Positions 1,052 to 28,516 of a stretch of DNA of 64,000 bases are shown here, piece after piece. The notes under the pieces are model-generated. The model did not search any database. It saw only the letters and a program-made list of their open reading frames with translations, and was not told the DNA's origin. How positions within the stretch are numbered: the first letter of the stretch is position 1; every line of letters starts with the position of its first letter. This DNA is from an uncultured Gemmatimonadales bacterium. Lineage in GTDB: Bacteria; Gemmatimonadota; Gemmatimonadetes; Gemmatimonadales; GWC2-71-9. The stretch spans positions 32,001-96,000 of the forward strand of contig CAWCFX010000004.1 of NCBI GenBank assembly GCA_963795085.1, in the 5' to 3' direction. The position numbers and the translations under genes were made by a program.

Positions 1052-1511
1052 CTACGCGCTGCTGGCCTGCCCGGCGTCGAGGTGAGCCCGGATCCGGTCC
1101 AGCTCCGTCACCAGCGCGGGCAGGAGCAGGGCAGTCCCCCCACGGAGAAGGATAGCACCGGGTTTCAGGTTGAGCAGTCCTTCGAGGGTCCGGTAGATGG
1201 TGGAGGGGTTATGGCCTTCGGCCAGCGCGGCCTGGGCAAAGGGGTCGCCACCCTCCGCCCGCGCCACCAGGTCATAGACCCGGAACCAGCGTTTGAGGAA
1301 GCCCCACCGGGGCAGGTTCAGGGCGAGGAGGTGAGAGCGGAGGGCATGCCGGTCCTTGAGCCCCAGGTGTTGTGCCTGGACCTGGGCGGTGCGGGTCCAT
1401 GAGCGGTCCCGGGCCACGAGCAGGAGGAAAGCAAGCGCCGGCCCGGTGACCGGGAGGGTCTTGAGGTCTGCTTCAAGCGCGGGCAAGACGGGTTCTCGGG
1501 GGGGGGGGCAT
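1052..1511 (-). CDS. Small AraC-like helix-turn-helix protein; ATG 1511 is out of frame because of a C11 tract (frameshifted, phase-variable, or a sequencing error)
   Basis: AQHLGLKDRHALRSHL...RWFRVYDLV...FAQAALAEGHNPSTIYRTLEGLLNLKP resembles the two-HTH AraC DNA-binding domain. The track start (TTG 1546) coincides with a -35 box. Confidence 0.55.
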
Positions 1512-1750: not shown

Positions 1751-2080
1751 ATGCGAGCTCGCTGGCTTGGTGTCATTCTACTTTCGCTAGGTTTCGTTGC
1801 CTTTCTGGCCTCACGGCCGAACTCACTCAACGCTGAAACCCCATCAACCCTTTCAGGGGCAATTGTTTGCGTAACTCAGGCCGCGGTGTTTGATCCAACT
1901 GAGCTTTCCGGAAACGAAACCTTGGGTGCGATAGCGATGCAGGATGCGCAATGCCCCTCGGGTCAGAAGTGCTGCATTTCAAATCACTGCAATTGCGGAC
2001 AGCCACCTAAGCCCGCATGCTGTGATGCAACCTGTTCCTGCGTGTGCATCCCGACCGGGTCGAATTGCTGTAATAATTGA
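1751..2080 (+). CDS. Secreted cysteine-rich small protein (signal peptide, linker, 12-Cys C-terminal core)
   Basis: GGAGG SD; hydrophobic signal MRARWLGVILLSLGFVAFLA; core CPSGQKCCISNHCNCGQPPKPACCDATCSCVCIPTGSNCCNN. Confidence 0.8.
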   Translation: MRARWLGVILLSLGFVAFLASRPNSLNAETPSTLSGAIVCVTQAAVFDPTELSGNETLGAIAMQDAQCPSGQKCCISNHCNCGQPPKPACCDATCSCVCIPTGSNCCNN

Positions 2081-2106
2081 ATGACTCATTCAGGACAGTT
2101 GCTACG

Positions 2107-2149
2107 TGCCTGAGGCTTGCACCCAGATCGCTGGGGCATGCCTCAGGCA
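2107..2149 (+). other. Long intergenic stem-loop after the Cys-rich peptide gene (mRNA stabiliser or attenuator)
   Basis: TGCCTGAGGC...CCCAG-ATCG-CTGGG...GCCTCAGGCA; no U-tract follows. Confidence 0.7.
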
Positions 2150-2202
2150 TTCCACTCACGCCCTACTCTCCTTCCACGCGAATCCTGATTCTTCAGCACA
2201 TA

Positions 2203-3315
2203 ATGTCACTTCGACATCTATCAGTGACACTGGCCATATCTCTCTGCATGGGATGCCGTGACGCAGGCGAACTCCGCATCGCGTGGACGATTCCCTTGGG
2301 ACAGGACACCTCCGTCGGATTGCCCGTTTCAGTTTCGGCAGGCCCTGACCGCACTGTCCTCGTTGCCGATGTTCAGCGAGGAGTCCTGCATCGTTGGAGC
2401 CTGGAGGGCAATAGGCTCTCCTCCTTCGGCACACCCGGTCGTTCTCCTGGCAGTTCTATGTCACCCTCTCTTGTCAGAACGTTGCGCGACACCATCATGG
2501 TATGGGACCGAGTGCAGCAGCGTGTCACGCTAATCTCACATGCTGGCAGCTTCTTAGGTATGGAGGAGATTGCTATCTGGCCCGCCAGGGATGGCTTTGT
2601 CAGGGCCTTTATGAAGGACGGAAACTCCTGGCTCCTCTGGCTACAGGAGCGCTCCCAGAAGTCAGGATTAGTCCAAGTCTCAAGCAGGATCATTCAGGCG
2701 AGAGACGTTTACGACACTCTCTCTGTGGCGGCTGGTCCTACCACCGTCGGCATACAGACAGTCGATTCACAGTACTCCCTAACCTTTCGATCACCATTCA
2801 ATCACCGTGCACTCGTCATGTTTGGGTCCCAGACTATTATTGGACTGTCCAGTTTGTCCGATTCGATTGCCTATCCAGGACGCTCTGTGCTTGCTCGAAA
2901 GACATTGGGGTTGGAGTCCATTCCTTCAGACCACCAGCGGCAGCGCGCCTATCGCGATTCAAGTATTCTTGGAATTGTACACCTGTTGCAGGACAGCTCC
3001 AAGATGGTCAACGCGGGAGAGGGGCAACTGGTTGCGCTATTCACCTCCTTCCTGGACACCGTGTCTCTCCCGAGTGTGATGCCGACTTTCTACTCTGCAA
3101 CACTTGATTCGACTGATCACCTCTGGGTCCTTGTCAACGGGAGTTCTCCCGCACAGCTTCAATGGATGCGTTATAACCTTCGCGACACCAGCCCTCCAAA
3201 AGTTATGGCGCGAGTAGCGTCGCGCAGAGTGGTCGATGCATTTGCTATGCCACATGCATTGGTGACTCTTGAGAGTGATAGCCACGGCGAATCTTGGATT
3301 GTCTTTTATGAATAG
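2203..3315 (+). CDS. 6-bladed beta-propeller (NHL/TolB-like) lipoprotein
   Basis: ATG 2203 gives MSLRHLSVTLAISLCMGC (lipobox); VLVADVQRGVLHRWSLEGNRLSSFGTPGRSPG is a degenerate GxxGxGPGE blade motif. Confidence 0.75.
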   Translation: MSLRHLSVTLAISLCMGCRDAGELRIAWTIPLGQDTSVGLPVSVSAGPDRTVLVADVQRGVLHRWSLEGNRLSSFGTPGRSPGSSMSPSLVRTLRDTIMVWDRVQQRVTLISHAGSFLGMEEIAIWPARDGFVRAFMKDGNSWLLWLQERSQKSGLVQVSSRIIQARDVYDTLSVAAGPTTVGIQTVDSQYSLTFRSPFNHRALVMFGSQTIIGLSSLSDSIAYPGRSVLARKTLGLESIPSDHQRQRAYRDSSILGIVHLLQDSSKMVNAGEGQLVALFTSFLDTVSLPSVMPTFYSATLDSTDHLWVLVNGSSPAQLQWMRYNLRDTSPPKVMARVASRRVVDAFAMPHALVTLESDSHGESWIVFYE

Positions 3316-4441
3316 ATTCCCGCGGTGGCCGGGATTGACCGCGTGTCTTCTGGGCGCTGGCATGATACATCTTTTTGGTCAGGCTCGCACTGCGCGGGAA
3401 GTGTGGAGTCGCGACAGCTTGCTTCACCCACTCTACCAGGTCCAGTCGCTGGGACTGGTGCAGGATTCCATACTGTGGGTAAGCGACGGTGGCACCGGAA
3501 TCCACCGGCTTACGACTGGGGGCCGGTATCTCGGTTCCGTTGGCAGGGAAGGCGAAGGGCCAGGCGAGTATCGATGGCCGTGGCACATCCAGGTGCTGGG
3601 CGACACCGTTGTGGTCTTCGACCGGCGCCTGCTCCGGCTGAACTTGTACACGGCGGATGGGGCGTTTCAGCGGTCCACACCGATGCAGGTCCTCGACAAC
3701 ATTCATGGACGTTTCAGGGGAATCGCCCGCCATCCGAATGGCTGGCTGGTCTGGACCGACAATTATCCCGCGGGAAGTCCGCGGCCCCACGAACAATCCT
3801 CATTCGTGTGGCTCATCGGCCTGAATGGCACACCGCGTGACACCCTCGTCACCTTCCCCGGGCCCGAGAGCATCATCCTCAGGGAAACTGGTACTTCCTC
3901 CCGAATCGACGCGCCGTTCCAACGGCGACCGTTCGTGCTCTTCACAGGCGACAGCATCGTGATCGGCAACAATGGAACCGACCACGTGACGATGTACGGG
4001 AGATCTGGCCGGGTCCGTAGCCGGGTAATGATTCCATTGGCCGCAAAGCGGGTAACGGCCGGGGATCGGGCCGCATACCACAGCTACCGCCGAGCACGGT
4101 GGAACGAGGAGGTCGAACAGCAGAATTACGGTCCGGAGATGAGACGGGTGTTTGCCGAGCGCTTTGACCAGATCATGGGACTCGTGCGCTATCCATCGAC
4201 CTGGCAACGCTATGAGTTGATGCTCCGTGACACCGAGGGAGATCTCTGGTTTTTGCTCCCGGCCAGCGGACCGGCGCGCACCTGGGTCGAACTGTCGGCC
4301 TCGGGCCGGATCAAGCAACGAATTCTGGTCAGGCACAAGGCAGCCGTGCTGCACGCGGTGATCGACGGCAACATGATGTACAGCGGTGAGTGGGACGAGG
4401 ATGCGGGCAAAGGCAGGGTGGCGGCATACTCTCTTCGATAA
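3308..4441 (+). CDS. Secreted 6-bladed beta-propeller protein
   Basis: ATG 3308 overlaps the upstream stop; signal peptide; GRYLGSVGREGEGPGEY and GDTVVVFD motifs. Confidence 0.85.
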   Translation: MNRFPRWPGLTACLLGAGMIHLFGQARTAREVWSRDSLLHPLYQVQSLGLVQDSILWVSDGGTGIHRLTTGGRYLGSVGREGEGPGEYRWPWHIQVLGDTVVVFDRRLLRLNLYTADGAFQRSTPMQVLDNIHGRFRGIARHPNGWLVWTDNYPAGSPRPHEQSSFVWLIGLNGTPRDTLVTFPGPESIILRETGTSSRIDAPFQRRPFVLFTGDSIVIGNNGTDHVTMYGRSGRVRSRVMIPLAAKRVTAGDRAAYHSYRRARWNEEVEQQNYGPEMRRVFAERFDQIMGLVRYPSTWQRYELMLRDTEGDLWFLLPASGPARTWVELSASGRIKQRILVRHKAAVLHAVIDGNMMYSGEWDEDAGKGRVAAYSLR

Positions 4442-4805
4442 GAAGCGAAGCGCGCCGCCCGCGTTGTAATGTCTGCCCTTCCAGCCTGGAGCCAGCAAAC
4501 CCACGGTAAGCAACGCCCGCGACGGGTCCACGAGGCGGCGAGTCAGACCGCCAGTCGCCCCATACATGGCCAGGTACCGACGTTTGCCAACCGGGGCAAG
4601 CCCAGTGTGGCTGGGGGCTGGGTCTGGCTGATGCTTTCAGGTTCTCCAGCTGACCTCGCGTCTCAGACCGCCCGCTCCTACCTGACCTTGCGAGCCTACC
4701 TGTGGCGTTCAGGACCTAGTGGTCGATACTGGCGGGGCACGGATCTATATCCCATACTGCTAGTCGATGCTCTGGCGCTACAATGTTGTTCGAGAGGATC
4801 CTGCC

Positions 4806-5084
4806 ATGAGAACCATCAGGTACTTCACCGGGCTGCTCGTGCTCCTCGTCGCTCCCGAGGCGGGCCTGGCCCAGGTCAAGGACGCCACGGGTGGAGTGGT
4901 CCCGTTGAAAGCCTCCGCAGTGAGCGAGCACCTCCTGCTGGAGGGAAACTTGTCGTTGGTGCTGATTCACCCAGGCCTGAGACTTGACGGAGTTCTTGAC
5001 ATCCGCCTGGACAATGAACTCGACTTGGGACTTGGCCTGACTGTCAGTCACGGCACGATTCGGCCAAGGCGGCTTCTCGACTAG
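4806..5084 (+). CDS. Small secreted hypothetical protein (92 aa)
   Basis: GAGGA SD; signal MRTIRYFTGLLVLLVAPEAGLA-Q; beta-rich, Leu-alternating mature part. Confidence 0.6.
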   Translation: MRTIRYFTGLLVLLVAPEAGLAQVKDATGGVVPLKASAVSEHLLLEGNLSLVLIHPGLRLDGVLDIRLDNELDLGLGLTVSHGTIRPRRLLD

Positions 5085-5105
5085 GAGGTCGCGGCCAGAT
5101 CGTGG

Positions 5106-5154
5106 GGCTGCCAACTCTGCGAGTGGTTTGCCACGTACTCTGCGGTGAGCTGTT
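5106..5154 (+). repeat. REP-like intergenic repeat, copy 1
   Basis: AACTCTGCGAGTGGTTTGCCACGTAC (5113-5138) matches 6350-6375 at 24/26; CGTACTCTGCGGTGAGCTGTT matches 6932-6952 at 20/21. Confidence 0.75.
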
Positions 5155-5194
5155 ATCCCCGGCTCGGCGCACCACCCTCGGTGGGGCATCAGAC

Positions 5195-6328
5195 ATGTTG
5201 AGGGACCGCCATCCTCCGCCCATCGCACCTACGCTGTGGCTTCTCAATAGTCTCGGAATGGTGGTGCTCTTCGGTCCCTCATCGGATCTCGCGGCCCAGA
5301 CCGCCCGGGCCGTACCGGCGCTCGCGATCCCCGGTGATGCACCCGGCTACTTCGTCAATCGCGTCGCCGCGATCGCCATCGCGTCCGATAGCAGTATCCT
5401 TGTCCTCGACCCGGTCGAAGCCAGGATCTACCGCTTTGACCGCCGGGGCCGGTACCTGGACGGCTGGGGGAGACAGGGCAGCGGGCCGGGCGAGTGGCGC
5501 CGACCTTCCACGCTCGGCTGGCGGGGCGATACCCTCTGGGCGTTCGATCCCGCACTCGCCCGGCTCAGCCTGTACGCACCGAGTGGGGGGTTCCATCGCA
5601 GCATCCAGCTGCCGGCGAGCGGGAAGGCGGTCTACCAGGCGGATGGTTCACTCGCGACGCTCTCCGTCATGAGCTACGGTAGCGCCGGGATCCGGGGCCC
5701 GCCCATCATCGCGGTCCGGTACAATGCCGCCGGACGCCTTGCCGATACCCTGATCAAGCTGCCCTCGGCCTACCGGGTGCTGGTGTACCCTCTAGGCGGG
5801 CGCACCAGCGTCGGGCAGCAGCCGTTCGAAGACGGCCCCCTCGTGGTCGGCGCGCTCAATGGCAGCGGCTGGCTGGTGGTACGGCGGGACGCAACCGGCA
5901 TCCCGGTCCGGCTGACCCGGATTGACCCCGCCGGCGACACCCTCTTCCAGCGTGCGATTCGCCTCCCGCCTCGGCGACTTACCCGAGCGCAGGTGGCCAG
6001 CGCCGTGGCAGACCTGGAGGCGGAAGGTCCCCGGCAGCCGGACCTGGGGGCGACCATCGAAGCGGCGCTGTACAAGCCCCGCTATCTCCCGCCGATTTCC
6101 GACGCGCTGGTCGGGGAGGACTCGACAATCTGGCTCCGCGGAACCATGCTCTGGGAACAGACGATCCGGTGGCTGGTGCTGGATCCCCACGGAGAAAAGC
6201 TCTTCGAGCTGGACCTGCCGACCGCATTCCGGCCCTTCGTGGCCACCCGGTCGATGGTATGGGGGGCCGAGCCGAATGAATCAGGCGTGCCGGTGGTGAA
6301 AACGATCAGGATCGCTGTCGAGCCCTGA
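5195..6328 (+). CDS. Secreted 6-bladed beta-propeller protein (start uncertain, 5195 or 5258)
   Basis: ILVLDPVEARIYRFDRRGRYLDGWGRQGSGPGEW; GDTLWAFD. Confidence 0.85.
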   Translation: MLRDRHPPPIAPTLWLLNSLGMVVLFGPSSDLAAQTARAVPALAIPGDAPGYFVNRVAAIAIASDSSILVLDPVEARIYRFDRRGRYLDGWGRQGSGPGEWRRPSTLGWRGDTLWAFDPALARLSLYAPSGGFHRSIQLPASGKAVYQADGSLATLSVMSYGSAGIRGPPIIAVRYNAAGRLADTLIKLPSAYRVLVYPLGGRTSVGQQPFEDGPLVVGALNGSGWLVVRRDATGIPVRLTRIDPAGDTLFQRAIRLPPRRLTRAQVASAVADLEAEGPRQPDLGATIEAALYKPRYLPPISDALVGEDSTIWLRGTMLWEQTIRWLVLDPHGEKLFELDLPTAFRPFVATRSMVWGAEPNESGVPVVKTIRIAVEP

Positions 6329-6342
6329 GGGCGCCGAGTCAA

Positions 6343-6375
6343 GGCTGCGAACTCTGCGAGTTGTTTGCCGCGTAC
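6343..6375 (+). repeat. REP-like intergenic repeat, copy 2
   Basis: GGCTGCGAACTCTGCGAGTTGTTTGCCGCGTAC is a direct repeat of 5106-5138. Confidence 0.75.
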
Positions 6376-6383
6376 CGACACAC

Positions 6384-6411
6384 TGCACTCTGCACTCTGC
6401 ACTCTGCACTC
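6384..6411. repeat. Heptamer tandem repeat (TGCACTC)4
   Basis: Read directly; the same unit recurs at 17997-18047. Confidence 0.95.
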
Positions 6412-6707
6412 TATCTCACCTGCGCCCCCGGCATCGGGTGAATCTCGAAGCTGAAGCCGGCCTGCGACTGGATCGCCGGGTCCTCCCCGGCGAATCCCTG
6501 CATCGTGGACTCGTCCTCGGCCTCGACCACCGCGATGCCGTAGGTGCCCTTCGGGTCCATCACCGGCCCGTACGCCACCACCGAGCCCGCCTGGATCAGC
6601 CCGGCCCAGTAGCCGAAATGCGCCTGCATGATGCCGCCCTCGGCCTCGGTCATGTCCGTCGGAAAACTCGGCCGCGGCGGGAGAAGCTTGTAGAGGAAAT
6701 AGTTCAC
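6411..6707 (-). CDS. YciI family protein
   Basis: GTG 6707 with AAGGGA SD; QAHFGYW...VVAYGPVMDPKGTYGIAVVEAED...EDPAI. Confidence 0.85.
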   Translation of the reverse strand: MNYFLYKLLPPRPSFPTDMTEAEGGIMQAHFGYWAGLIQAGSVVAYGPVMDPKGTYGIAVVEAEDESTMQGFAGEDPAIQSQAGFSFEIHPMPGAQVR

Positions 6708-6840
6708 GTGAAATCCCTTGACATGGTTCAGAGAAAAGCACACCGCCGAGTTCGCAGAAGAGGCGCCGAGTTCGCAGTTGACTCCGACGCCGGTGCGGCC
6801 TCTGCGTATGCTGTTGCAGTGCTACAGACCACCAGGTTGT

Positions 6841-6956
6841 CTTGAACAGCTCATCGCAGAGTGCGCAGAACCGGTCCCAGAGTTCGCGGTGACTCCGATG
6901 CCGCTGCGACCTCTGCGCTCTGATGTTGCCGCGTACTCTGCGATGAGCTGTTCAGG
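6841..6956. repeat. ~116 bp element with 26 bp terminal inverted repeats (MITE/REPIN-like)
   Basis: CTTGAACAGCTCATCGCAGAGTGCGC versus the reverse complement of GCGTACTCTGCGATGAGCTGTTCAGG: 24/26 identity. Confidence 0.75.
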
Positions 6957-7015: not shown

Positions 7016-8155
7016 TTACAGTTTGTATCTCTCCAGGTGCTGCAGATCATCCCGATCGGTCTGCCGGAGATAGATCACCCCGTTCCCGAACCCCACCATC
7101 CGCCGGCCGGCCGGGAGCAGCACCTGCGTCTTGAATTGGCCGCCCGCGTCGAACACGTCCATCACCCGCGGCGCACCCGCCGGCACGCTCCGCTCCACCC
7201 AGGCCTCGCCGGCCGGGGATACCCACACCGCCGAGAACACCGGCTTCACCGCCGGCCACTCGGTCTCCGCGATGGCGTTCTCCTCGGCGTCCTCCGCCCG
7301 CCCGCCCCGGCCAAACGACATGCTCACCTGGCCGTTCCGGTTCTCCATGTTGACGCTGAGCGCGTTGGACAGGTCGGCCACGTACTCCCGCTTGTCCGGG
7401 TCGCGCACCGGCACCGGGGCGACCCGCACCGGCGTGCCGCGCACCACGCGGCCGTCCGGGGTGACCCAGTCCACCCGGTACTCCTGCCCCCGGGCGATGG
7501 CCACCTGGCCGGCCGGGCCCACCGCCCAGCTGTCCTGTACCGGGTAGGGCCGGGGACGCTGCACCATCCGCTGGTTGTTCTGCCCGCCCGAGGTCTGGGT
7601 GTTCATCTCGGGGAGCTTCACCTTCGCCACGGTATCGAAGGCGGAGCGGGCCCGGTCCCAGCGGACCACCACCGCCGAATCGGGGATACGGCCGCCCATG
7701 CCGGGCTGGAAATATACCCGGCCCTGCGCATCCACACCGCGAGGCAGGATCATCATCATTCGGGGCGGGCTTCCCACCGCGATCGGCGCCGACTCGCGGT
7801 ACTTGCCGTCCGCCGCGAGATAGTTGAGCCGCGCGTTGCCCAGGTCCATGAGCAGCGTACCGCCGCCCGGCAGCGGGAACAGCGCATCGGGCGCCTTGTA
7901 CTCGCCCGGCCCCTGGCCCACCCGTCCCAGCGTTTCCCCCCGGCCCGTCTTGAAATCGGCGAGCATCAGCACCTCGTCGATGCCGTCCGCCACCAGCACT
8001 CGACCGTCGGGAAGCTCCCGGAGCCCGCGAATGGAACTGAAAGCGTGGGGGAACCGGGCGTCGGCGGCCGTCAGCCGGCGCTCGGGGACCTGCTGGGCCG
8101 CCGCCGGGAGGGCGAGGATGACAGCCGCGGCCGCCAGCAGAAAGGTTCGCATCAT
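7016..8155 (-). CDS. Secreted 6-bladed beta-propeller protein
   Basis: Signal peptide ending PAAA-QQ; RELPDGRVLVAD; LGRVGQGPGEY; C-terminal DVFDAGG...VGFGNGVIYL. Confidence 0.9.
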   Translation of the reverse strand: MMRTFLLAAAAVILALPAAAQQVPERRLTAADARFPHAFSSIRGLRELPDGRVLVADGIDEVLMLADFKTGRGETLGRVGQGPGEYKAPDALFPLPGGGTLLMDLGNARLNYLAADGKYRESAPIAVGSPPRMMMILPRGVDAQGRVYFQPGMGGRIPDSAVVVRWDRARSAFDTVAKVKLPEMNTQTSGGQNNQRMVQRPRPYPVQDSWAVGPAGQVAIARGQEYRVDWVTPDGRVVRGTPVRVAPVPVRDPDKREYVADLSNALSVNMENRNGQVSMSFGRGGRAEDAEENAIAETEWPAVKPVFSAVWVSPAGEAWVERSVPAGAPRVMDVFDAGGQFKTQVLLPAGRRMVGFGNGVIYLRQTDRDDLQHLERYKL

Positions 8156-8185
8156 GATGGTCTTCCCGGTTGGAGATGAACAACA

Positions 8186-8220
8186 AAATTACAAATTGCA
8201 AATTACAAATCTTAAATTGT
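8186..8220. repeat. AT-rich degenerate heptamer repeat (AAATTRC-like) x5
   Basis: AAATTAC AAATTGC AAATTAC AAATCTT AAATTGT. Confidence 0.85.
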
Positions 8221-9354
8221 ATAACTTTCCAGCCACTGAATATCGTCGCCGTCCGTCCGCACCAGGTACACGCTGTTCTTCCCGAAGCCGGCGATCCGCC
8301 GGTCCCGGGGCAGGGTCACGGTACGCACGAAGGTACCCTGCTGGTCGAAGACGTCCACCGTGGGCACCGGGTCGCCGCCCCGGCGGGAGCGCAGCAGCCA
8401 GAGCTGGCCATTGGGCGCGACCCATGCACTGTTCCGCCCGGGGAAGGGCGGCTTGAACCCGGGGTACTGGGGCGCCGGCATGTTCACCGTCGGGGGGGGC
8501 CCCGATGCCCCGGGGCCACTCCCGAACGTTACCCGCGGAGCACCCTGGGCCCTCTGCTGTGACTCGCGGTCGGCATCGTTCACCCGGACCGGCTGGTGGC
8601 GATTGACCGGCCCGGAGGTCCGCTGCTTCGCCGGAGAATACCAGTCCACATGGAAATCCGTTACGCGCGCCACCGCCATCCGGCCATCGGCGCCCACCGC
8701 CCAGGTGTCTTCGGGGCTGAACGGCTCCGGCCGCATCATCATCATGCGGCCCTGCCCGGAGCTGGATGTCCGCATGGTCATGGCGGTGATCTTGAGGAAG
8801 GTCACGGTATCCACCGTCGCCCGCCGCCGGTCCCACCGCAGCACCGGCACCGAGTCGGGCGGTGATGCCATGCTGCCCGGCCCGCCCGGCGGGATCAGGC
8901 TTCCCCGGAAATAGATCCGGCCCGCCAGGTCTGAATACTGTGGATCGGCGCCGATTCCGAGATTCTCGGGGAACGGGATGTGGCCGCCGGCCTTGCCGTT
9001 CGGCAGGATGATGAGAAAGCGGCGGTTCGACGGGTCCACCAACAAGGTTGAGTCTCCCGCCAGAGGCAGCAGCGCCCCGGGAAACGAGTACTCGCCGGGG
9101 CCCTGGCCCTCGCGCCCGACCCGCACCGCCGTGCCCGCGGTGAGGTCGAGCAACTGGACCGTTTTCTCCCCCGGATCGGCCACCAGGACCCTGCCGTTGG
9201 AGAGTTCCCGGATGGACCCGACATTGGTGAATCCGTCGGCGGACTGGGCCGTCGGCCGGCCCAGCGAAGGCCCGCCGGCCCGCTGCTGCGCCTGGCCAGT
9301 TGAATAGGGAACCGCACAGATACACGCGAATAGCAGAAACGACCCGGCCCGCAT
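8212..9354 (-). CDS. Secreted 6-bladed beta-propeller protein, paralogue of 7016-8155
   Basis: RELSNGRVLVAD; VGREGQGPGEY; DVFDQQG...AGFGKNSVYL. Confidence 0.9.
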   Translation of the reverse strand: MRAGSFLLFACICAVPYSTGQAQQRAGGPSLGRPTAQSADGFTNVGSIRELSNGRVLVADPGEKTVQLLDLTAGTAVRVGREGQGPGEYSFPGALLPLAGDSTLLVDPSNRRFLIILPNGKAGGHIPFPENLGIGADPQYSDLAGRIYFRGSLIPPGGPGSMASPPDSVPVLRWDRRRATVDTVTFLKITAMTMRTSSSGQGRMMMMRPEPFSPEDTWAVGADGRMAVARVTDFHVDWYSPAKQRTSGPVNRHQPVRVNDADRESQQRAQGAPRVTFGSGPGASGPPPTVNMPAPQYPGFKPPFPGRNSAWVAPNGQLWLLRSRRGGDPVPTVDVFDQQGTFVRTVTLPRDRRIAGFGKNSVYLVRTDGDDIQWLESYTI

Positions 9355-24391: not shown

Positions 24392-26585
24392 AGAACACCA
24401 CCTGCTCGTTCAGCACCAGCGGAACCTGGAATGGCGCACCGCCGCCGACCGGCACCAGCGAGAAGGTGAACTCGGCCTTGCCGCGCCGTGGGTCGGTGAC
24501 CCGGCCGGCCACTACCGCCAACCGGTCGCCGGTCCGACTGACACCCAGGGAGGTGATCGCGGCGGGGCTGCTGTAGATAGCGCCGGCCACACCGCCGGCT
24601 GCGGGCAGCCGCATGACCTGCCACCCCGCCCGCTTGACCTCCGCCCCATACGCCAGATCGCCGTTCGGAAAGAATGCCGGGGCCGATTCCTTTTCCCGTG
24701 TGTTGGAGAGGTTCAGCTGGTTCGACCCATCGATGTCCATCCGGTACACTTCCACGTTGCCGTCCCGGCCCGACAGGAACGCGATCCACCTCCCGTCCGG
24801 AGAGACGGCGGGAGAGGAATTGCCTCCCCCGAGGCTGGTCAGCTGGCGGATATCCCCGCCATTTACGTCCATGCTGAAGATCTGGGTGGCCCCGCCCCGG
24901 GTGCCGGTGAAGACCAGGCGGGTGCCATCCGGCGTCCACCCCGCATCGCCGTCGGGGCCTGGTAACGCGGCGACCCGCCGAATGTTCTGTCCATCCGCGT
25001 CCACCAGGTAGAGGTCATAGTCACCGCCCCGGTTGGAGCTGAAGACGATGGTCGTGCGGTCCGGGCTCAGCGCGGCCTGCACGTTCTGAAAACTGTCGGC
25101 CAGAATGGGCACCATCCGGCTCGGGTCCTTCCAGCCGACCTGGTAGATGCCGAACTGGGGCCCGCCGCGGTTGGCGGAATAGACCACATCGCCGACGACA
25201 AAGACATCGGCGGTCGCGCTCCTCCCCCAGGGCGTCGTTGCGGTCAGCCGGGCCCGGCCAAACCCGGTGGCCTCCACCACGCCGTCGTTCCCCACGACCG
25301 CCGCGGTGATCCGGTCCGAGGTCCATTGCAGGTGCTCGGCCGGACTCAGCACGGCACCGCTCTCATCCACCAGGTTGGCCTTGACCTGCGTCCGGGCGCC
25401 CAGTTCCATCGAAAAGCGGGTCTGATCCAGCGCAATGCCGCCCGGCACCACTTCGACCACCCAGGAGACCGGGTCGAACCCCCGGGCTCGCAACGTCACC
25501 GTGGTGGTGCCGAGCCCGAGCGCGGTGATCTCTCCCCTGGCCGGGTCGTACCCGGCGACGGCACTGTCTCCCACTTCCCACCAGAGCGTCGCCTCCGGCA
25601 CTGGTGTGGAGTCCGCGGCTTCGGCCTGCACGGTCAGCGCGCGGGTCCCGCGCAGCGGCATTCGCAGGATGCCGGCGCTGGGCTTCGGCGTCACCACGAG
25701 GGTCTCCACCGGCTTGTGCACCCGGACCGGGATGCGTCGCTCCTGGAAGAAACCGGCGATGATTATCTCAGCCTCCCCCGGCACCATCGCCTGCACGATG
25801 CCGGTCGGTCCAACCCGGACAATGTCGGGATGACTGGACCGCCACTGCAGCCCGGCGCGAAGTTCCCGGTTGCCATGGGACGGCACCGTTGCCGTGATGG
25901 TATCGAGGTCATACGGCGCCAGAATCAGCCGGGCGGGTGCCAGGGAAATCTCGGCGGCGCTGATCTCCACGGGCGCCGTCGCGGCCAGGCCGCCGGCAGC
26001 GCTCGCCTGTACGATGGCCGTCCCCGGCGCCAGGCCGACGATGACGCCCTCGGCGTCCACGGCGACCGTTTCCGGAGTCAGCGACTTCCAGATAATCCGC
26101 GGCAGCTCGGCCGCGGAGCCGTCATCCCGAAACGCCCGGATGACCAGGCGGCGATTCTCGGAGGGGAGCAAATACACCGGGCTCGGCTCGATGGTGATCA
26201 TCGAAGCCGGCGGGCTGGCAGCCGGAACTGGAGAGGTCGCGGCCTCGGTGGTGGTCTGGGGCTGATTCACCGACTCTACTGAGACTGCGACGCTGAATGA
26301 CTTCTGGCCGGCGCTCACCTGGACGATGGCGGCGCCCGGTTTGAGCCCGATGATCACCCCGTCGGCCTGGGCCTGGGCGACGGTCGGGTTGTTGGAGCTG
26401 AAGGTGAACCGTATCGTGGGAATCAGGTTGCCGCCGGTGTCGAACGCGGCCGCAAACAGCGCCTGCTTCTGGCCCACTCGGAGCGTGACCGTCTCCGGGG
26501 TGACCTGGACTTCAGACACGTTCTGGGCCCGAAGGGCCCCGGGAATGAGGATGAGTGAGAGAACTAATGCCGAAGTCAGTCGCAC
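24390..26585 (-). CDS. Secreted protein with several Ig-like (Big_2) domains and a C-terminal TolB/PD40 propeller
   Basis: GTG 26585 with GAGGTG SD; repeats FSSNNPTVA, WKSLTPETV, WRSSHPDIV; LSPDRTTIVFSSNRGGDYDLY; VSPDGRWIAFLSGRDGNVEVY. Confidence 0.9.
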   Translation of the reverse strand: MRLTSALVLSLILIPGALRAQNVSEVQVTPETVTLRVGQKQALFAAAFDTGGNLIPTIRFTFSSNNPTVAQAQADGVIIGLKPGAAIVQVSAGQKSFSVAVSVESVNQPQTTTEAATSPVPAASPPASMITIEPSPVYLLPSENRRLVIRAFRDDGSAAELPRIIWKSLTPETVAVDAEGVIVGLAPGTAIVQASAAGGLAATAPVEISAAEISLAPARLILAPYDLDTITATVPSHGNRELRAGLQWRSSHPDIVRVGPTGIVQAMVPGEAEIIIAGFFQERRIPVRVHKPVETLVVTPKPSAGILRMPLRGTRALTVQAEAADSTPVPEATLWWEVGDSAVAGYDPARGEITALGLGTTTVTLRARGFDPVSWVVEVVPGGIALDQTRFSMELGARTQVKANLVDESGAVLSPAEHLQWTSDRITAAVVGNDGVVEATGFGRARLTATTPWGRSATADVFVVGDVVYSANRGGPQFGIYQVGWKDPSRMVPILADSFQNVQAALSPDRTTIVFSSNRGGDYDLYLVDADGQNIRRVAALPGPDGDAGWTPDGTRLVFTGTRGGATQIFSMDVNGGDIRQLTSLGGGNSSPAVSPDGRWIAFLSGRDGNVEVYRMDIDGSNQLNLSNTREKESAPAFFPNGDLAYGAEVKRAGWQVMRLPAAGGVAGAIYSSPAAITSLGVSRTGDRLAVVAGRVTDPRRGKAEFTFSLVPVGGGAPFQVPLVLNEQVVF

Positions 26586-26670
26586 AGTATCACCTCGAAA
26601 GAGCTTCACCCGGAGGAGCGCAGGGGAGGCCGGGACTCGTTGAGATAAGCGATCCGTCCTGCCAGACAAG

Positions 26671-26685
26671 GCAAAGGGCAAGCCA
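26671..26685 (-). promoter_or_regulatory. Candidate sigma54 (-24/-12) promoter
   Basis: TGGCTTGCCCTTTGC has GG-N10-GC spacing, about 85 nt upstream of GTG 26585. Confidence 0.45.
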
Positions 26686-27245
26686 TGGACGAATGACATA
26701 AGTCCATGGGAGATCAGGGGGTAGCTGGATCCCTCCGGACCGGCGTTTTTTCTGTACACGTCTCCTGCGACCGGCGGTCTGCCCCTGCTACTGGAGGTGA
26801 TGCAAGTCAACCCTGTTCAATAACTTAAGCTATTTGCCCGACGCCAACTGGACCTTGAGCTCTCCGGCTTCGTCACCGGGAGTATTGGCGACGACTAACA
26901 CATTGGGATCGTGGCCTCACCTTTAGTCGACCACAGCCCCCGCTCCGAGAGGTAAACCATTTAGCAACTTTGAGATATGTACCCACTTTGCGCGAGCAGG
27001 GACTTCACCAGGGGCCACGCATCTCGCCCCGGAGTCTGGAAAGTTGCGGTGCTCGTCGCCGCCCCTCGTCGCCAGAAGCCCCGGTGTTTCGGGAGTCCGA
27101 CGCGGCGGGCACCTCGCGGTCCGAGTGCCTTGCAGAACCACTCAACTTGTGCAAGTTATATCCATCAAATGTCTGTCAGGCGCACAGGCGCGTCAAATAC
27201 CTGCGGCGGGTCGCGCCGCTCGAGTCTTCCCTGGGAGCTACAACG

Positions 27246-27701
27246 ATGGCCGACCTGAACGAGGAGATGGGCTGGTCTGGAGCGGGCTGGATGGATCCTA
27301 CGCCGCTTTCCCCTGAGCCGGAGCCGATGTCGCCCTTCAGCGCGGCCCGGGAAGAAACCATGCCGAACGCGGAGGAGGGGCCAGCGGTAAAGCCCAAGGC
27401 CGCCGCCCGGCCCCGGAAGAAGGCCGCGAAGAAGCCGGCCAAGAAGGCAGTCGCGAAGAAGCCGGCCAAGAAGGCGAAGAAGAAGGCCGCCGCGAAGAAA
27501 TCAAAGGGGAAGAAAGCGGCAAAGAAGAAGGCCGGTGGCAAATCCAAGGGCTCCGGAAAGAAGAGCGCCAAGAAGAGCGTTAAGAAGAAGAGTGCCAAGA
27601 AGAAGAGTGCCGGCAAGAAAGGCGCAGGAAAGAAGAAAGGATCCGGCAAAAAGAATAAGGCGAAGAGCGGCAAGAAGGGCGGTAAGAAGAAGAAGCGGTA
27701 G
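27246..27701 (+). CDS. Histone H1-like Lys/Ala-rich protein with an acidic N-terminus
   Basis: GGAG SD; KKAAKKPAKK and KKSAKK repeats over about 100 residues. Confidence 0.8.
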   Translation: MADLNEEMGWSGAGWMDPTPLSPEPEPMSPFSAAREETMPNAEEGPAVKPKAAARPRKKAAKKPAKKAVAKKPAKKAKKKAAAKKSKGKKAAKKKAGGKSKGSGKKSAKKSVKKKSAKKKSAGKKGAGKKKGSGKKNKAKSGKKGGKKKKR

Positions 27702-27709
27702 CCGAGAAT

Positions 27710-27744
27710 CCCCCCTCCCGATCAGGCGAGGGGGGCTTTTTGTT
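27710..27744 (+). terminator. Rho-independent terminator
   Basis: CCCCCCTC...GAGGGGGG followed by CTTTTTGTT; overlaps the end of convergent otsB. Confidence 0.8.
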
Positions 27745-28516
27745 CCCGCCTGGCCCGCTCCAGCCGATGGAGCCACCGGGCCAGGGTAGCGGGACTGGGA
27801 GTCCGGAATTGCGCGCCCCGCGGCCGGCGTCCTACCGCGATAGTCAGCGCCTTGGGGCCCAGCGCTCGAAAGGCGTCTTCGTCGGTCGTGTCATCCCCTG
27901 CGTACAGCACATGGCTCAGCGGAACCTTGCCTTTTTCGGTGCGTTCCAGCCACCGCTTCACGGCGGCGCCCTTATCGGCTCCCCGGGCGCGGACGTCGAT
28001 GACCCGCCGTCCCTTGAGGGCCTCCACCTCTTTTCCCATCAGGGCTCCGCGCACCATGCTCAGCAGCCGCCCCAGTTCCTCGGGCGAGAGCCGGTGGTGA
28101 AGCGCCACCGAATGGCCCTTCGATTCCAGCCGCACACCGGGCCAACTGCGTTCCAGTTCCCGGGCAATGGCGGTGGTAGCGGTCCTGAGGCCGGGATGGT
28201 CCCGAGCGGTCCAGTTGGCCACCCGGCGTTGCCGCAGCAGCTCGGCGCCATGGTTGCCGAGGATTCCGTCGAACTCCCCGCCCATGACGCGGTGGGCATC
28301 GCGGGCGGCCCGTCCGCTCACCAGCACCACGCTGGCCCCGGTCCGGCGGAGCGCCTGCAGCAGGTCGCGGGTCTTGCGGGGAGTCCGAGCGTCTTCCGGG
28401 CGGGACACGATCGGCGCCAGGGTTCCGTCCACATCCAGGAAGAGCACCGGCCGGGGCGCGGCCGCCAGCCGCTCGAACGCCGCCCGGCCCGCGCTGGCGG
28501 AGAGCGGCTGGGTCAC
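27722..28516 (-). CDS. otsB: Trehalose-6-phosphate phosphatase
   Basis: LFLDVDGTLAPI, VSGR, GNHGAE, DKG, GDDTTDEDAF; adjacent to otsA. Confidence 0.95.
   Translation of the reverse strand: MTQPLSASAGRAAFERLAAAPRPVLFLDVDGTLAPIVSRPEDARTPRKTRDLLQALRRTGASVVLVSGRAARDAHRVMGGEFDGILGNHGAELLRQRRVANWTARDHPGLRTATTAIARELERSWPGVRLESKGHSVALHHRLSPEELGRLLSMVRGALMGKEVEALKGRRVIDVRARGADKGAAVKRWLERTEKGKVPLSHVLYAGDDTTDEDAFRALGPKALTIAVGRRPRGAQFRTPSPATLARWLHRLERARREQKAPLA

Follow-up and report, generated by a model that had tools for sequence, protein, structure and literature searches.

A recurrent layout of exported cysteine-rich peptides and six-bladed propeller proteins in Gemmatimonadota

Here we describe a gene layout in which a small exported cysteine-rich peptide precedes secreted six-bladed propeller proteins, as found in a window of 64,000 nucleotides (nt) from an uncultured Gemmatimonadales bacterium (contig CAWCFX010000004.1, positions 32,001 to 96,000; "the window" is this whole stretch). 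The genome to which it belongs measures 3.9 Mb, has 67% guanine plus cytosine (GC) and is 93% complete. The layout is real, widespread and testable, and the example in the window, with its peptide gene at 1751-2080, is unusually dense in Cys. Judged by gene order and predicted products, it recurs in relatives with different peptides. The anatomy of the cassette, its recurrence, the co-inheritance of several peptide-propeller pairs and the propeller fold are shown. With something short of even confidence, we propose that the peptide is a polymorphic ligand, exported by Sec and locked by disulfides, that has its cognate binder in a propeller, is released by a resistance-nodulation-division (RND) pump and serves strain-specific recognition or conflict.

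Anatomy of the peptide and its propellers

The first part of the cassette consists of the following elements.

1751..2080, plus strand: exported peptide precursor of 109 amino acids (aa), with a signal, an acidic linker of about 40 aa and a core of 42 aa that includes 12 Cys; Trp is absent downstream of the signal
2107-2123 and 2133-2149, plus strand: arms of a 17-bp hairpin between the peptide and propeller 1
2203..3315, plus strand: propeller 1, a 370-aa NHL-type six-bladed lipoprotein (LCMGC, Cys18), the presumed cognate partner of the peptide
3308..4441, plus strand: propeller 2, 377 aa with a signal peptide, translationally coupled to propeller 1

The original prediction, made from the sequence alone, had proposed a peptide gene with a strong Shine-Dalgarno (SD) sequence, a signal, a linker and a 42-aa core with 12 Cys, and the open reading frame (ORF) at 1751-2080 has all of these. 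Its ribosome-binding site (GGAGG at 1740-1744) lies 6 nt 5' of the ATG, and its hydrophobic N-terminus ends in SLNA, where by eye the signal would be cleaved after A28. The Cys residues of the core are spaced C5CC4C1C7CC3C1C1C6CC, and the linker contains one further Cys. The core carries a charge of +1 and the whole mature part one of -4. Disulfide locking of the core is likely, in keeping with the disulfide-rich product originally expected.

No relatives of the peptide were found among 5.8 billion proteins (59-191 aa), nor in the Atlas, metagenome contigs, PDB or Pfam, and the core matched no Pfam family even at E values up to 10. A DxxCPxxxKCC stretch is, we presume, reminiscent of the WAP four-disulfide core; there was no WAP chain among the 3 weak PDB matches to the core. 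Some 40 weak peptide matches (E up to 0.05) in 400 genomes of the same family were chance-like, with a propeller in none of the 19 returned loci. Homology of the core to an 8-Cys peptide family, plausible by eye, was rejected at a best p of 0.025 with full shuffles and 0.11 with Cys fixed (24 comparisons). The peptide is an orphan, and the evidence for its being real is therefore the layout.

The hairpin that had been noticed behind the peptide gene proved sound (z -4.8, with none of 200 shuffles equally stable), and no terminator-type U tract was called at it. Such a structure could raise the stoichiometry of peptide over propeller. Comparably strong hairpins follow 4 of 26 peptides, versus none of 25 control windows, and with only these 4 a post-peptide hairpin was ruled out as a general feature of the layout.

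The reading frames of propellers 1 and 2 share 8 nt (the ATG of propeller 2 is at 3308), which upholds the coupling proposed for them. The two proteins are 25% identical, and both match each other and propeller 3, encoded further downstream. The nearest relative of propeller 1 (P0002) is 32% identical; its genomic context was not found, nor were close relatives of propeller 1 found in genome contigs. With a 55-row alignment the fold of propeller 1 was predicted at a predicted local distance difference test (pLDDT) score of 87.5, the single-sequence prediction reaching 38, and the expected six blades were recovered. The best structural match was the NHL domain of Brat (Z 20.5, root-mean-square deviation (rmsd) 3.5, 254 aligned), the top matches were non-catalytic NHL domains, and the profile of propeller 1 also matches NHL chains; PAL gave Z 16.5, rmsd 4.4 and 259 aligned. 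Against PF17170 (DUF5128, gathering cut-off 22.9) propeller 3 scored above the cut-off (24.7) and propeller 2 below it (14.4), and propeller 1 had no Pfam match. A predicted complex of the core with propeller 1 scored 0.02, the fold of the partner being uncertain.

The GC content of third codon positions (GC3) is 0.52 in the peptide, 0.58 in propeller 1, 0.72 in propeller 2 and 0.81 in propeller 3, versus 0.85-0.92 in flanking host-type genes. The low-GC islet with atypical codons, as first described, is thus evident at the peptide and propeller 1. Together with direct repeats, this gradient suggests that the islet was built stepwise, with the pair of peptide and propeller 1 last; by its composition, this gene pair is a recent acquisition.

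Recurrence of the layout and divergence of its parts

A filter for a signal plus Cys, run as an in-genome control over the 3.9 Mb, passed 14 ORFs. Both of those with at least 8 Cys lie within 0.7 kb of a same-strand propeller ORF, and the other 12 lie at least 2.8 kb away from one, in a genome with 16 propeller ORFs. One of the two is the window peptide, and the other belongs to a second cassette of the same genome.

G000:C1:1089800-1094500 (L036:9800-14500), minus strand: second cassette, with a propeller, a DsbA-like CPAC gene, two tandem 8-Cys peptides, a small exported gene and a propeller

This cassette is located in an island of 50-55% GC beside an integrase and an insertion sequence (IS) element, and it reflects decay or assembly error, because frameshifts are many and extend to the neighbouring restriction-type and integrase genes. 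A cassette in another genus has the same 8-Cys peptide type and counterparts of both propellers (34% identity), and in an Aminicenantes record a related peptide adjoins a propeller.

The linkage of peptide and propeller was expected to recur across genomes if it mattered, and it does. Across 947 kb in 80 loci, fetched by way of propeller or RND anchors, a candidate peptide lies within 1.3 kb upstream of 9 of 123 propellers versus 2 of 409 other genes, one of the 9 candidates being in reality a DsbA-like protein. By hand we curated 36 exported Cys peptides that neighbour DUF5128-like six-bladed propellers, with a floor of 3-4 Cys and with the exclusion of shadow frames and of ORFs overlapping long genes. 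Their Cys counts are 3 (1 peptide), 4 (11), 6 (13), 7 (3), 8 (4), 10 (3) and 13 (1), with none at 5 or 9, so that 31 of the 36 have an even number; the filter floor favours 4, yet leaves the gap at 5 unexplained. A charge of -2 or lower is found in 25 of the 36 and a charge of +2 or more in none, which speaks against a cationic antimicrobial peptide. None of the 35 other curated peptides scored above a Pfam or NCBIfam cut-off. Tandem duplicate peptides precede one propeller in four loci (L036, L132, L200, L204). Among tested neighbours of CxxC type, 5 of 7 are Thioredoxin_4 or Redoxin genes above cut-off, and the host genome encodes DsbA beside VKOR.

Some genomes carry arrays of at least three different cassettes (L126:7900-17000 in G127:C22, L204, L205 and L132), some with DsbA-like genes and an AraC gene of their own. 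Elsewhere, longer exported Cys proteins of 108-148 aa replace the peptide before propellers (L132:13391-13837, L205:3818-4237 and L095:12783-13109).

Of 172 propellers, 15 stand directly behind a peptide; their positions on the tree are scattered, their tips are longer (1.29 vs 0.58) and their GC3 is lower (0.68 vs 0.81). A clade of peptide-linked propellers is unsupported (13 changes vs 14.6 when shuffled, 58/1000). In a set of 27 linked, fast-diverging propellers, median identity is 19% and shared positions are mostly Gly and Pro; an N-terminal Cys is aligned in 20 of the 27, which are often lipoproteins. PAL enzymes have conserved His metal ligands and a catalytic Tyr. A conserved set of this kind is absent here, the best His column being filled in 4 and the best Tyr column in 11 of the 27, and the enzymatic maturation role once offered for the propellers loses its footing; the linked propellers would appear to behave as specific binders rather than enzymes. 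Inheritance as pairs was followed across 28 pairs. Related peptides are mostly accompanied by related propellers: of the 4 peptide pairs that are most alike, 3 come with propellers that are reciprocal best. Conserved pairs include L057b/L187, L133a/L188 and L057a/L083 as well as the 8-Cys type.

Regulator, pump and remaining islet

Upstream of the peptide, on the opposite strand, lie a regulator and an RND operon.

1052..1486 (start uncertain, 1486 or 1546), minus strand: stand-alone AraC-type helix-turn-helix (HTH) regulator, divergent from the cassette
1498..1508, plus strand: 11 consecutive G at the regulator's 5' end; no other G/C homopolymer of 11 occurs in the genome
1..956, continuing 165 nt beyond the window edge, minus strand: RND periplasmic adaptor, HlyD_D23 and TIGR01730 above cut-off
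G000:C4:28541-31639 and 25324-28386, outside the window, from the gene map: two AcrB-family permeases after the adaptor

The AraC-type gene has no direct Pfam or PDB match; in its Atlas look-alike clusters (0.94-0.96), 76-95% of the members have HTH_18. The 11-G run, directly behind an out-of-frame ATG, is possibly a slippage switch or an assembly artefact. A profile built from four homologues matched in 54 of 300 family genomes, and its 27 best loci outside the profile set (18 with long flanks, 9 with 1.5 kb) were counted. Opposite 5 of these homologues stands a divergent unit of peptide then propeller, and opposite 2 stands a propeller, in one case with its peptide behind it. Three further AraC-peptide pairs stand outside this count, in two loci picked from a cassette-rich genome. 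Short ORFs that by eye resemble Rhs-repeat fragments adjoin the same stand-alone gene in L196 (G525:C49).

We collected 35 loci at orthologues of the RND adaptor, and the 24 of at least 5 kb contain propeller ORFs in 20 cases and SD-led Cys peptides in 6. Furthermore, distant two-permease RND operons have propeller genes between their permease genes (L016, L018, L024, L095), and in a genome of the same genus (L186) an AraC-propeller unit lies at the opposite end of the RND operon. A table in PMC10434189 numbers the Bacteroides thetaiotaomicron 6-bladed propeller BT0664 near signal peptidase I BT0667 and RND adaptor BT0669. The AraC-like gene and the RND adaptor had already been placed upstream of the cassette, and their position stands; the view of them as bystanders gives way to a new point, namely that both, the regulator gene and the RND operon, probably belong to the module, judged by their recurrent neighbourhoods. 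The two permeases differ at the motif of transmembrane segment 4 (LVDNA vs LVQNG). There is no outer-membrane channel gene in the operon, and two candidate channels are encoded elsewhere in the genome.

Downstream of propeller 2 the islet continues as follows.

4566..4800, plus strand: decayed remnant similar to the part of propeller 3 that encodes its signal peptide (74% identity to 5262-5307 across 46 nt)
4806..5084, plus strand: 92-aa orphan ORF with an SD and a signal-like start, a singleton cluster for which no longer relative was found
5195..6328, plus strand: propeller 3, PF17170 above cut-off, with codons like those of the host, bracketed by direct repeats of 33 nt (5106-5138 and 6343-6375)

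A small secreted ORF and a third propeller had been read as the end of the cassette. Both are present; however, the stretch 4560-5100 may be debris, because the 92-aa ORF has no relatives and sits behind a decayed fragment, and propeller 3 is probably a separate insertion, given its host-like codons (GC3 0.81) and the flanking repeats. REP-like repeats surround propeller 3 and a YciI gene (window 5106-5154, 6343-6375 and 6744-6954), and an array of CTCTGCA heptamers, of which many copies occur across the genome, lies at window 6379-6412. Two host-like propeller paralogues at window 7016-9354 (minus strand), conserved in genomes of the same genus (L020) along with the patatin and ECF sigma genes, form a slowly evolving, peptide-free subfamily.

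Proposed mechanism, alternatives and known systems

In the mechanism that we favour, the AraC-type protein would control the divergent cassette operon, and the precursor would cross the inner membrane by Sec, as its signal indicates. The core would then be closed by about six disulfides through the host DsbA/VKOR pair, or, in other copies, through a DsbA encoded within the cassette, and trimming of the linker would probably follow. The propeller lipoprotein would act as a non-catalytic cognate binder that holds the peptide, protects the producer and/or passes the peptide to the pump, with propellers 2 and 3 as possible additional binders without a peptide of their own. Release might proceed through the adjacent two-permease RND pump and a host outer-membrane channel, by analogy with STII of E. 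coli, which is exported by Sec, DsbA and MacAB-TolC (PMC5985334). The likeness lies in the Sec signal, the periplasmic disulfides and a tripartite pump as the proposed second step; however, MacB is an ABC pump and ours has two RND permeases, and the portions of PMC5985334 consulted give STII no propeller partner. The cores are neutral to acidic, which points to a protein target rather than membranes, and the peptide would be a specific ligand on such a target, with no cationic membrane breaking. The rapid turnover, the decay and the orphan partners hint at recognition or conflict at strain level, with peptide-propeller pairs presumably exchanged between lineages as units. A bolder version seems rather unlikely in its entirety: a hitherto undescribed system in Gemmatimonadota, and probably also in Bacteroidota, for secretion and recognition in two steps, in which propeller lipoproteins are swappable adaptors, each loading one folded disulfide-locked peptide on a dedicated two-permease RND pump, with strains trading cassettes as a miniprotein-binder library switched by a possibly phase-varying stand-alone AraC protein.

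Several observations weigh against a ligand with a cognate binder. The window peptide has 13 Cys downstream of its signal, an odd number, and its cassette has no DsbA of its own. As many as 157 of the 172 propellers lack a peptide directly upstream, and the family therefore needs no linked peptide and also functions by itself or with peptides from other loci. The propellers beside the most similar peptide pair (L126c/L207) are unrelated, the Mantel test across all 28 pairs falls short of significance (rho 0.065, p 0.10), the charges of peptides and linked propellers are not complementary (p 0.17), and co-inheritance of pairs could arise from linkage alone. With regard to the proposed module parts, 20 of the 27 AraC homologues face no propeller, nor does the genome's own second AraC copy; the 14 kb covered at the second cassette show no RND or AraC gene; and the RND link may mark a mere insertion hot spot. 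Note also that the loci were chosen by anchor (propeller, RND or AraC), that the peptides were curated by hand, and that kin are not independent.

Methylamine dehydrogenase (mauBEDA) combines a propeller, a thioredoxin-fold protein and a small disulfide-rich exported subunit, and amine dehydrogenases are built of small and large subunits. The present layout of small Cys-rich secreted gene, propeller and thioredoxin-fold gene recalls it, and the co-inherited pairs and the many propeller lipoproteins would likewise suit a stable two-subunit surface protein, in which an unreleased peptide, as the small disulfide-rich subunit, completes or tunes the propeller of variable receptors, adhesins or enzymes. 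We regard this as rather unlikely. The core has no Trp from which tryptophan tryptophylquinone (TTQ) could form, the peptide is hypervariable, the propeller is six-bladed and of NHL type without conserved catalytic columns, and MauE appears in the genome only below cut-off and on another contig (MauG was not searched for). Furthermore, tandem peptides before one propeller and the post-peptide hairpin suggest an excess of peptide. Hypervariability, low GC, decay and orphan partners would equally fit a classical bacteriocin that kills neighbours, with propellers 1-3 as cognate and orphan immunity lipoproteins and the pump incidental, and the clusters of bacteroidetocins (class IIf) join four-Cys peptides with a thiol oxidoreductase gene (PMC6671954). 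That explanation is nevertheless unlikely, given that the 36 curated peptides include no cationic one and that conserved peptide-free propellers lie inside RND operons. Bacteroidetocin clusters have a double-glycine leader and a peptidase transporter, they lack immunity genes, and the word 'propeller' is absent from PMC6671954; here the N-terminus is of Sec type, as unlike class II bacteriocins as the charges of +1 and -4, no double-glycine leader was seen, and no peptidase ABC transporter was present among the neighbours in the window scan.

That 12 Cys are packed into 42 residues beside an RND operon would agree with metal buffering, in which Cu, Zn or Cd would be bound by the core within the periplasm, alongside RND metal efflux and an AraC regulator. 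Bufferins, too, are Sec-exported, Cys-containing ribosomal peptides; however, as summarized in PMC11626156, they require MNIO (DUF692) and DUF2063, and no MNIO (PF05114) was found in the 93%-complete genome (DUF2063 was not searched for). The even-Cys bias and the DsbA-type neighbours of other copies indicate disulfides, and a metal sponge would not be expected to show unrelated sequences at equivalent sites. Consequently, the metal-binding role put forward at first is weakened and appears improbable. That the propeller modifies the peptide, as a PAL-, lactonase- or lyase-like enzyme of a new class of peptides that are made by ribosomes and modified after translation (RiPPs), is in our judgement quite improbable; the fold is common to PAL and other propeller enzymes, but the linked propellers lack the His and Tyr columns of PAL at a median identity of 19%, and the closest structures are non-catalytic. 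A classical RiPP cluster had been discounted from the start, and rightly so, there being no radical SAM, YcaO, Lan or MNIO enzyme among the 12 proteins scanned from window 1-12.3 kb. Finally, small secreted genes and propellers might pile up independently at an insertion hot spot without any functional link, as the variable site between a conserved propeller pair and the RND operon, the debris and repeats in the window and the Mantel result would allow. This is very improbable, since order and strand are kept at many unrelated sites and the in-genome and control-gene tests oppose it; as far as gene order can tell, recurrence largely refutes it.

Among known layouts, the closest is one that presumably occurs in Bacteroidota, where small NVEALA (PF14055) proteins lie beside DUF5128/6-bladed propeller (PF17170) lipoproteins. 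Both have a small exported Cys protein adjoining a DUF5128-like propeller; however, the peptides described here have 4-12 Cys in unrelated spacings, the regulator is a stand-alone AraC protein and the host belongs to Gemmatimonadota. PF14055 matched neither the window peptide nor any of the 35 other curated peptides, and nothing in the genome, the genome search being above cut-off in none of 14 control genomes either. No function of the Bacteroidota layout was found in our literature search, and no published description of the peptide-propeller layout was found among titles and abstract openings outside subscription journals and supplements. The locus itself matches no characterised family, as the original prediction had supposed.

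If the proposed ligand and cognate binder hold true, a role could be assigned to a protein family that ranks among the most expanded of the unexplained ones in Gemmatimonadota, represented here by 16 propeller ORFs, and to the similar layout in Bacteroidota. The links to AraC and RND genes raise testable questions about the inducing signal and about the RND export of folded peptides with a propeller as adaptor. Overall, the layout hints at bacterial disulfide-rich miniproteins as a pool that annotation by Pfam and NCBIfam has missed, with a candidate natural binder for each.

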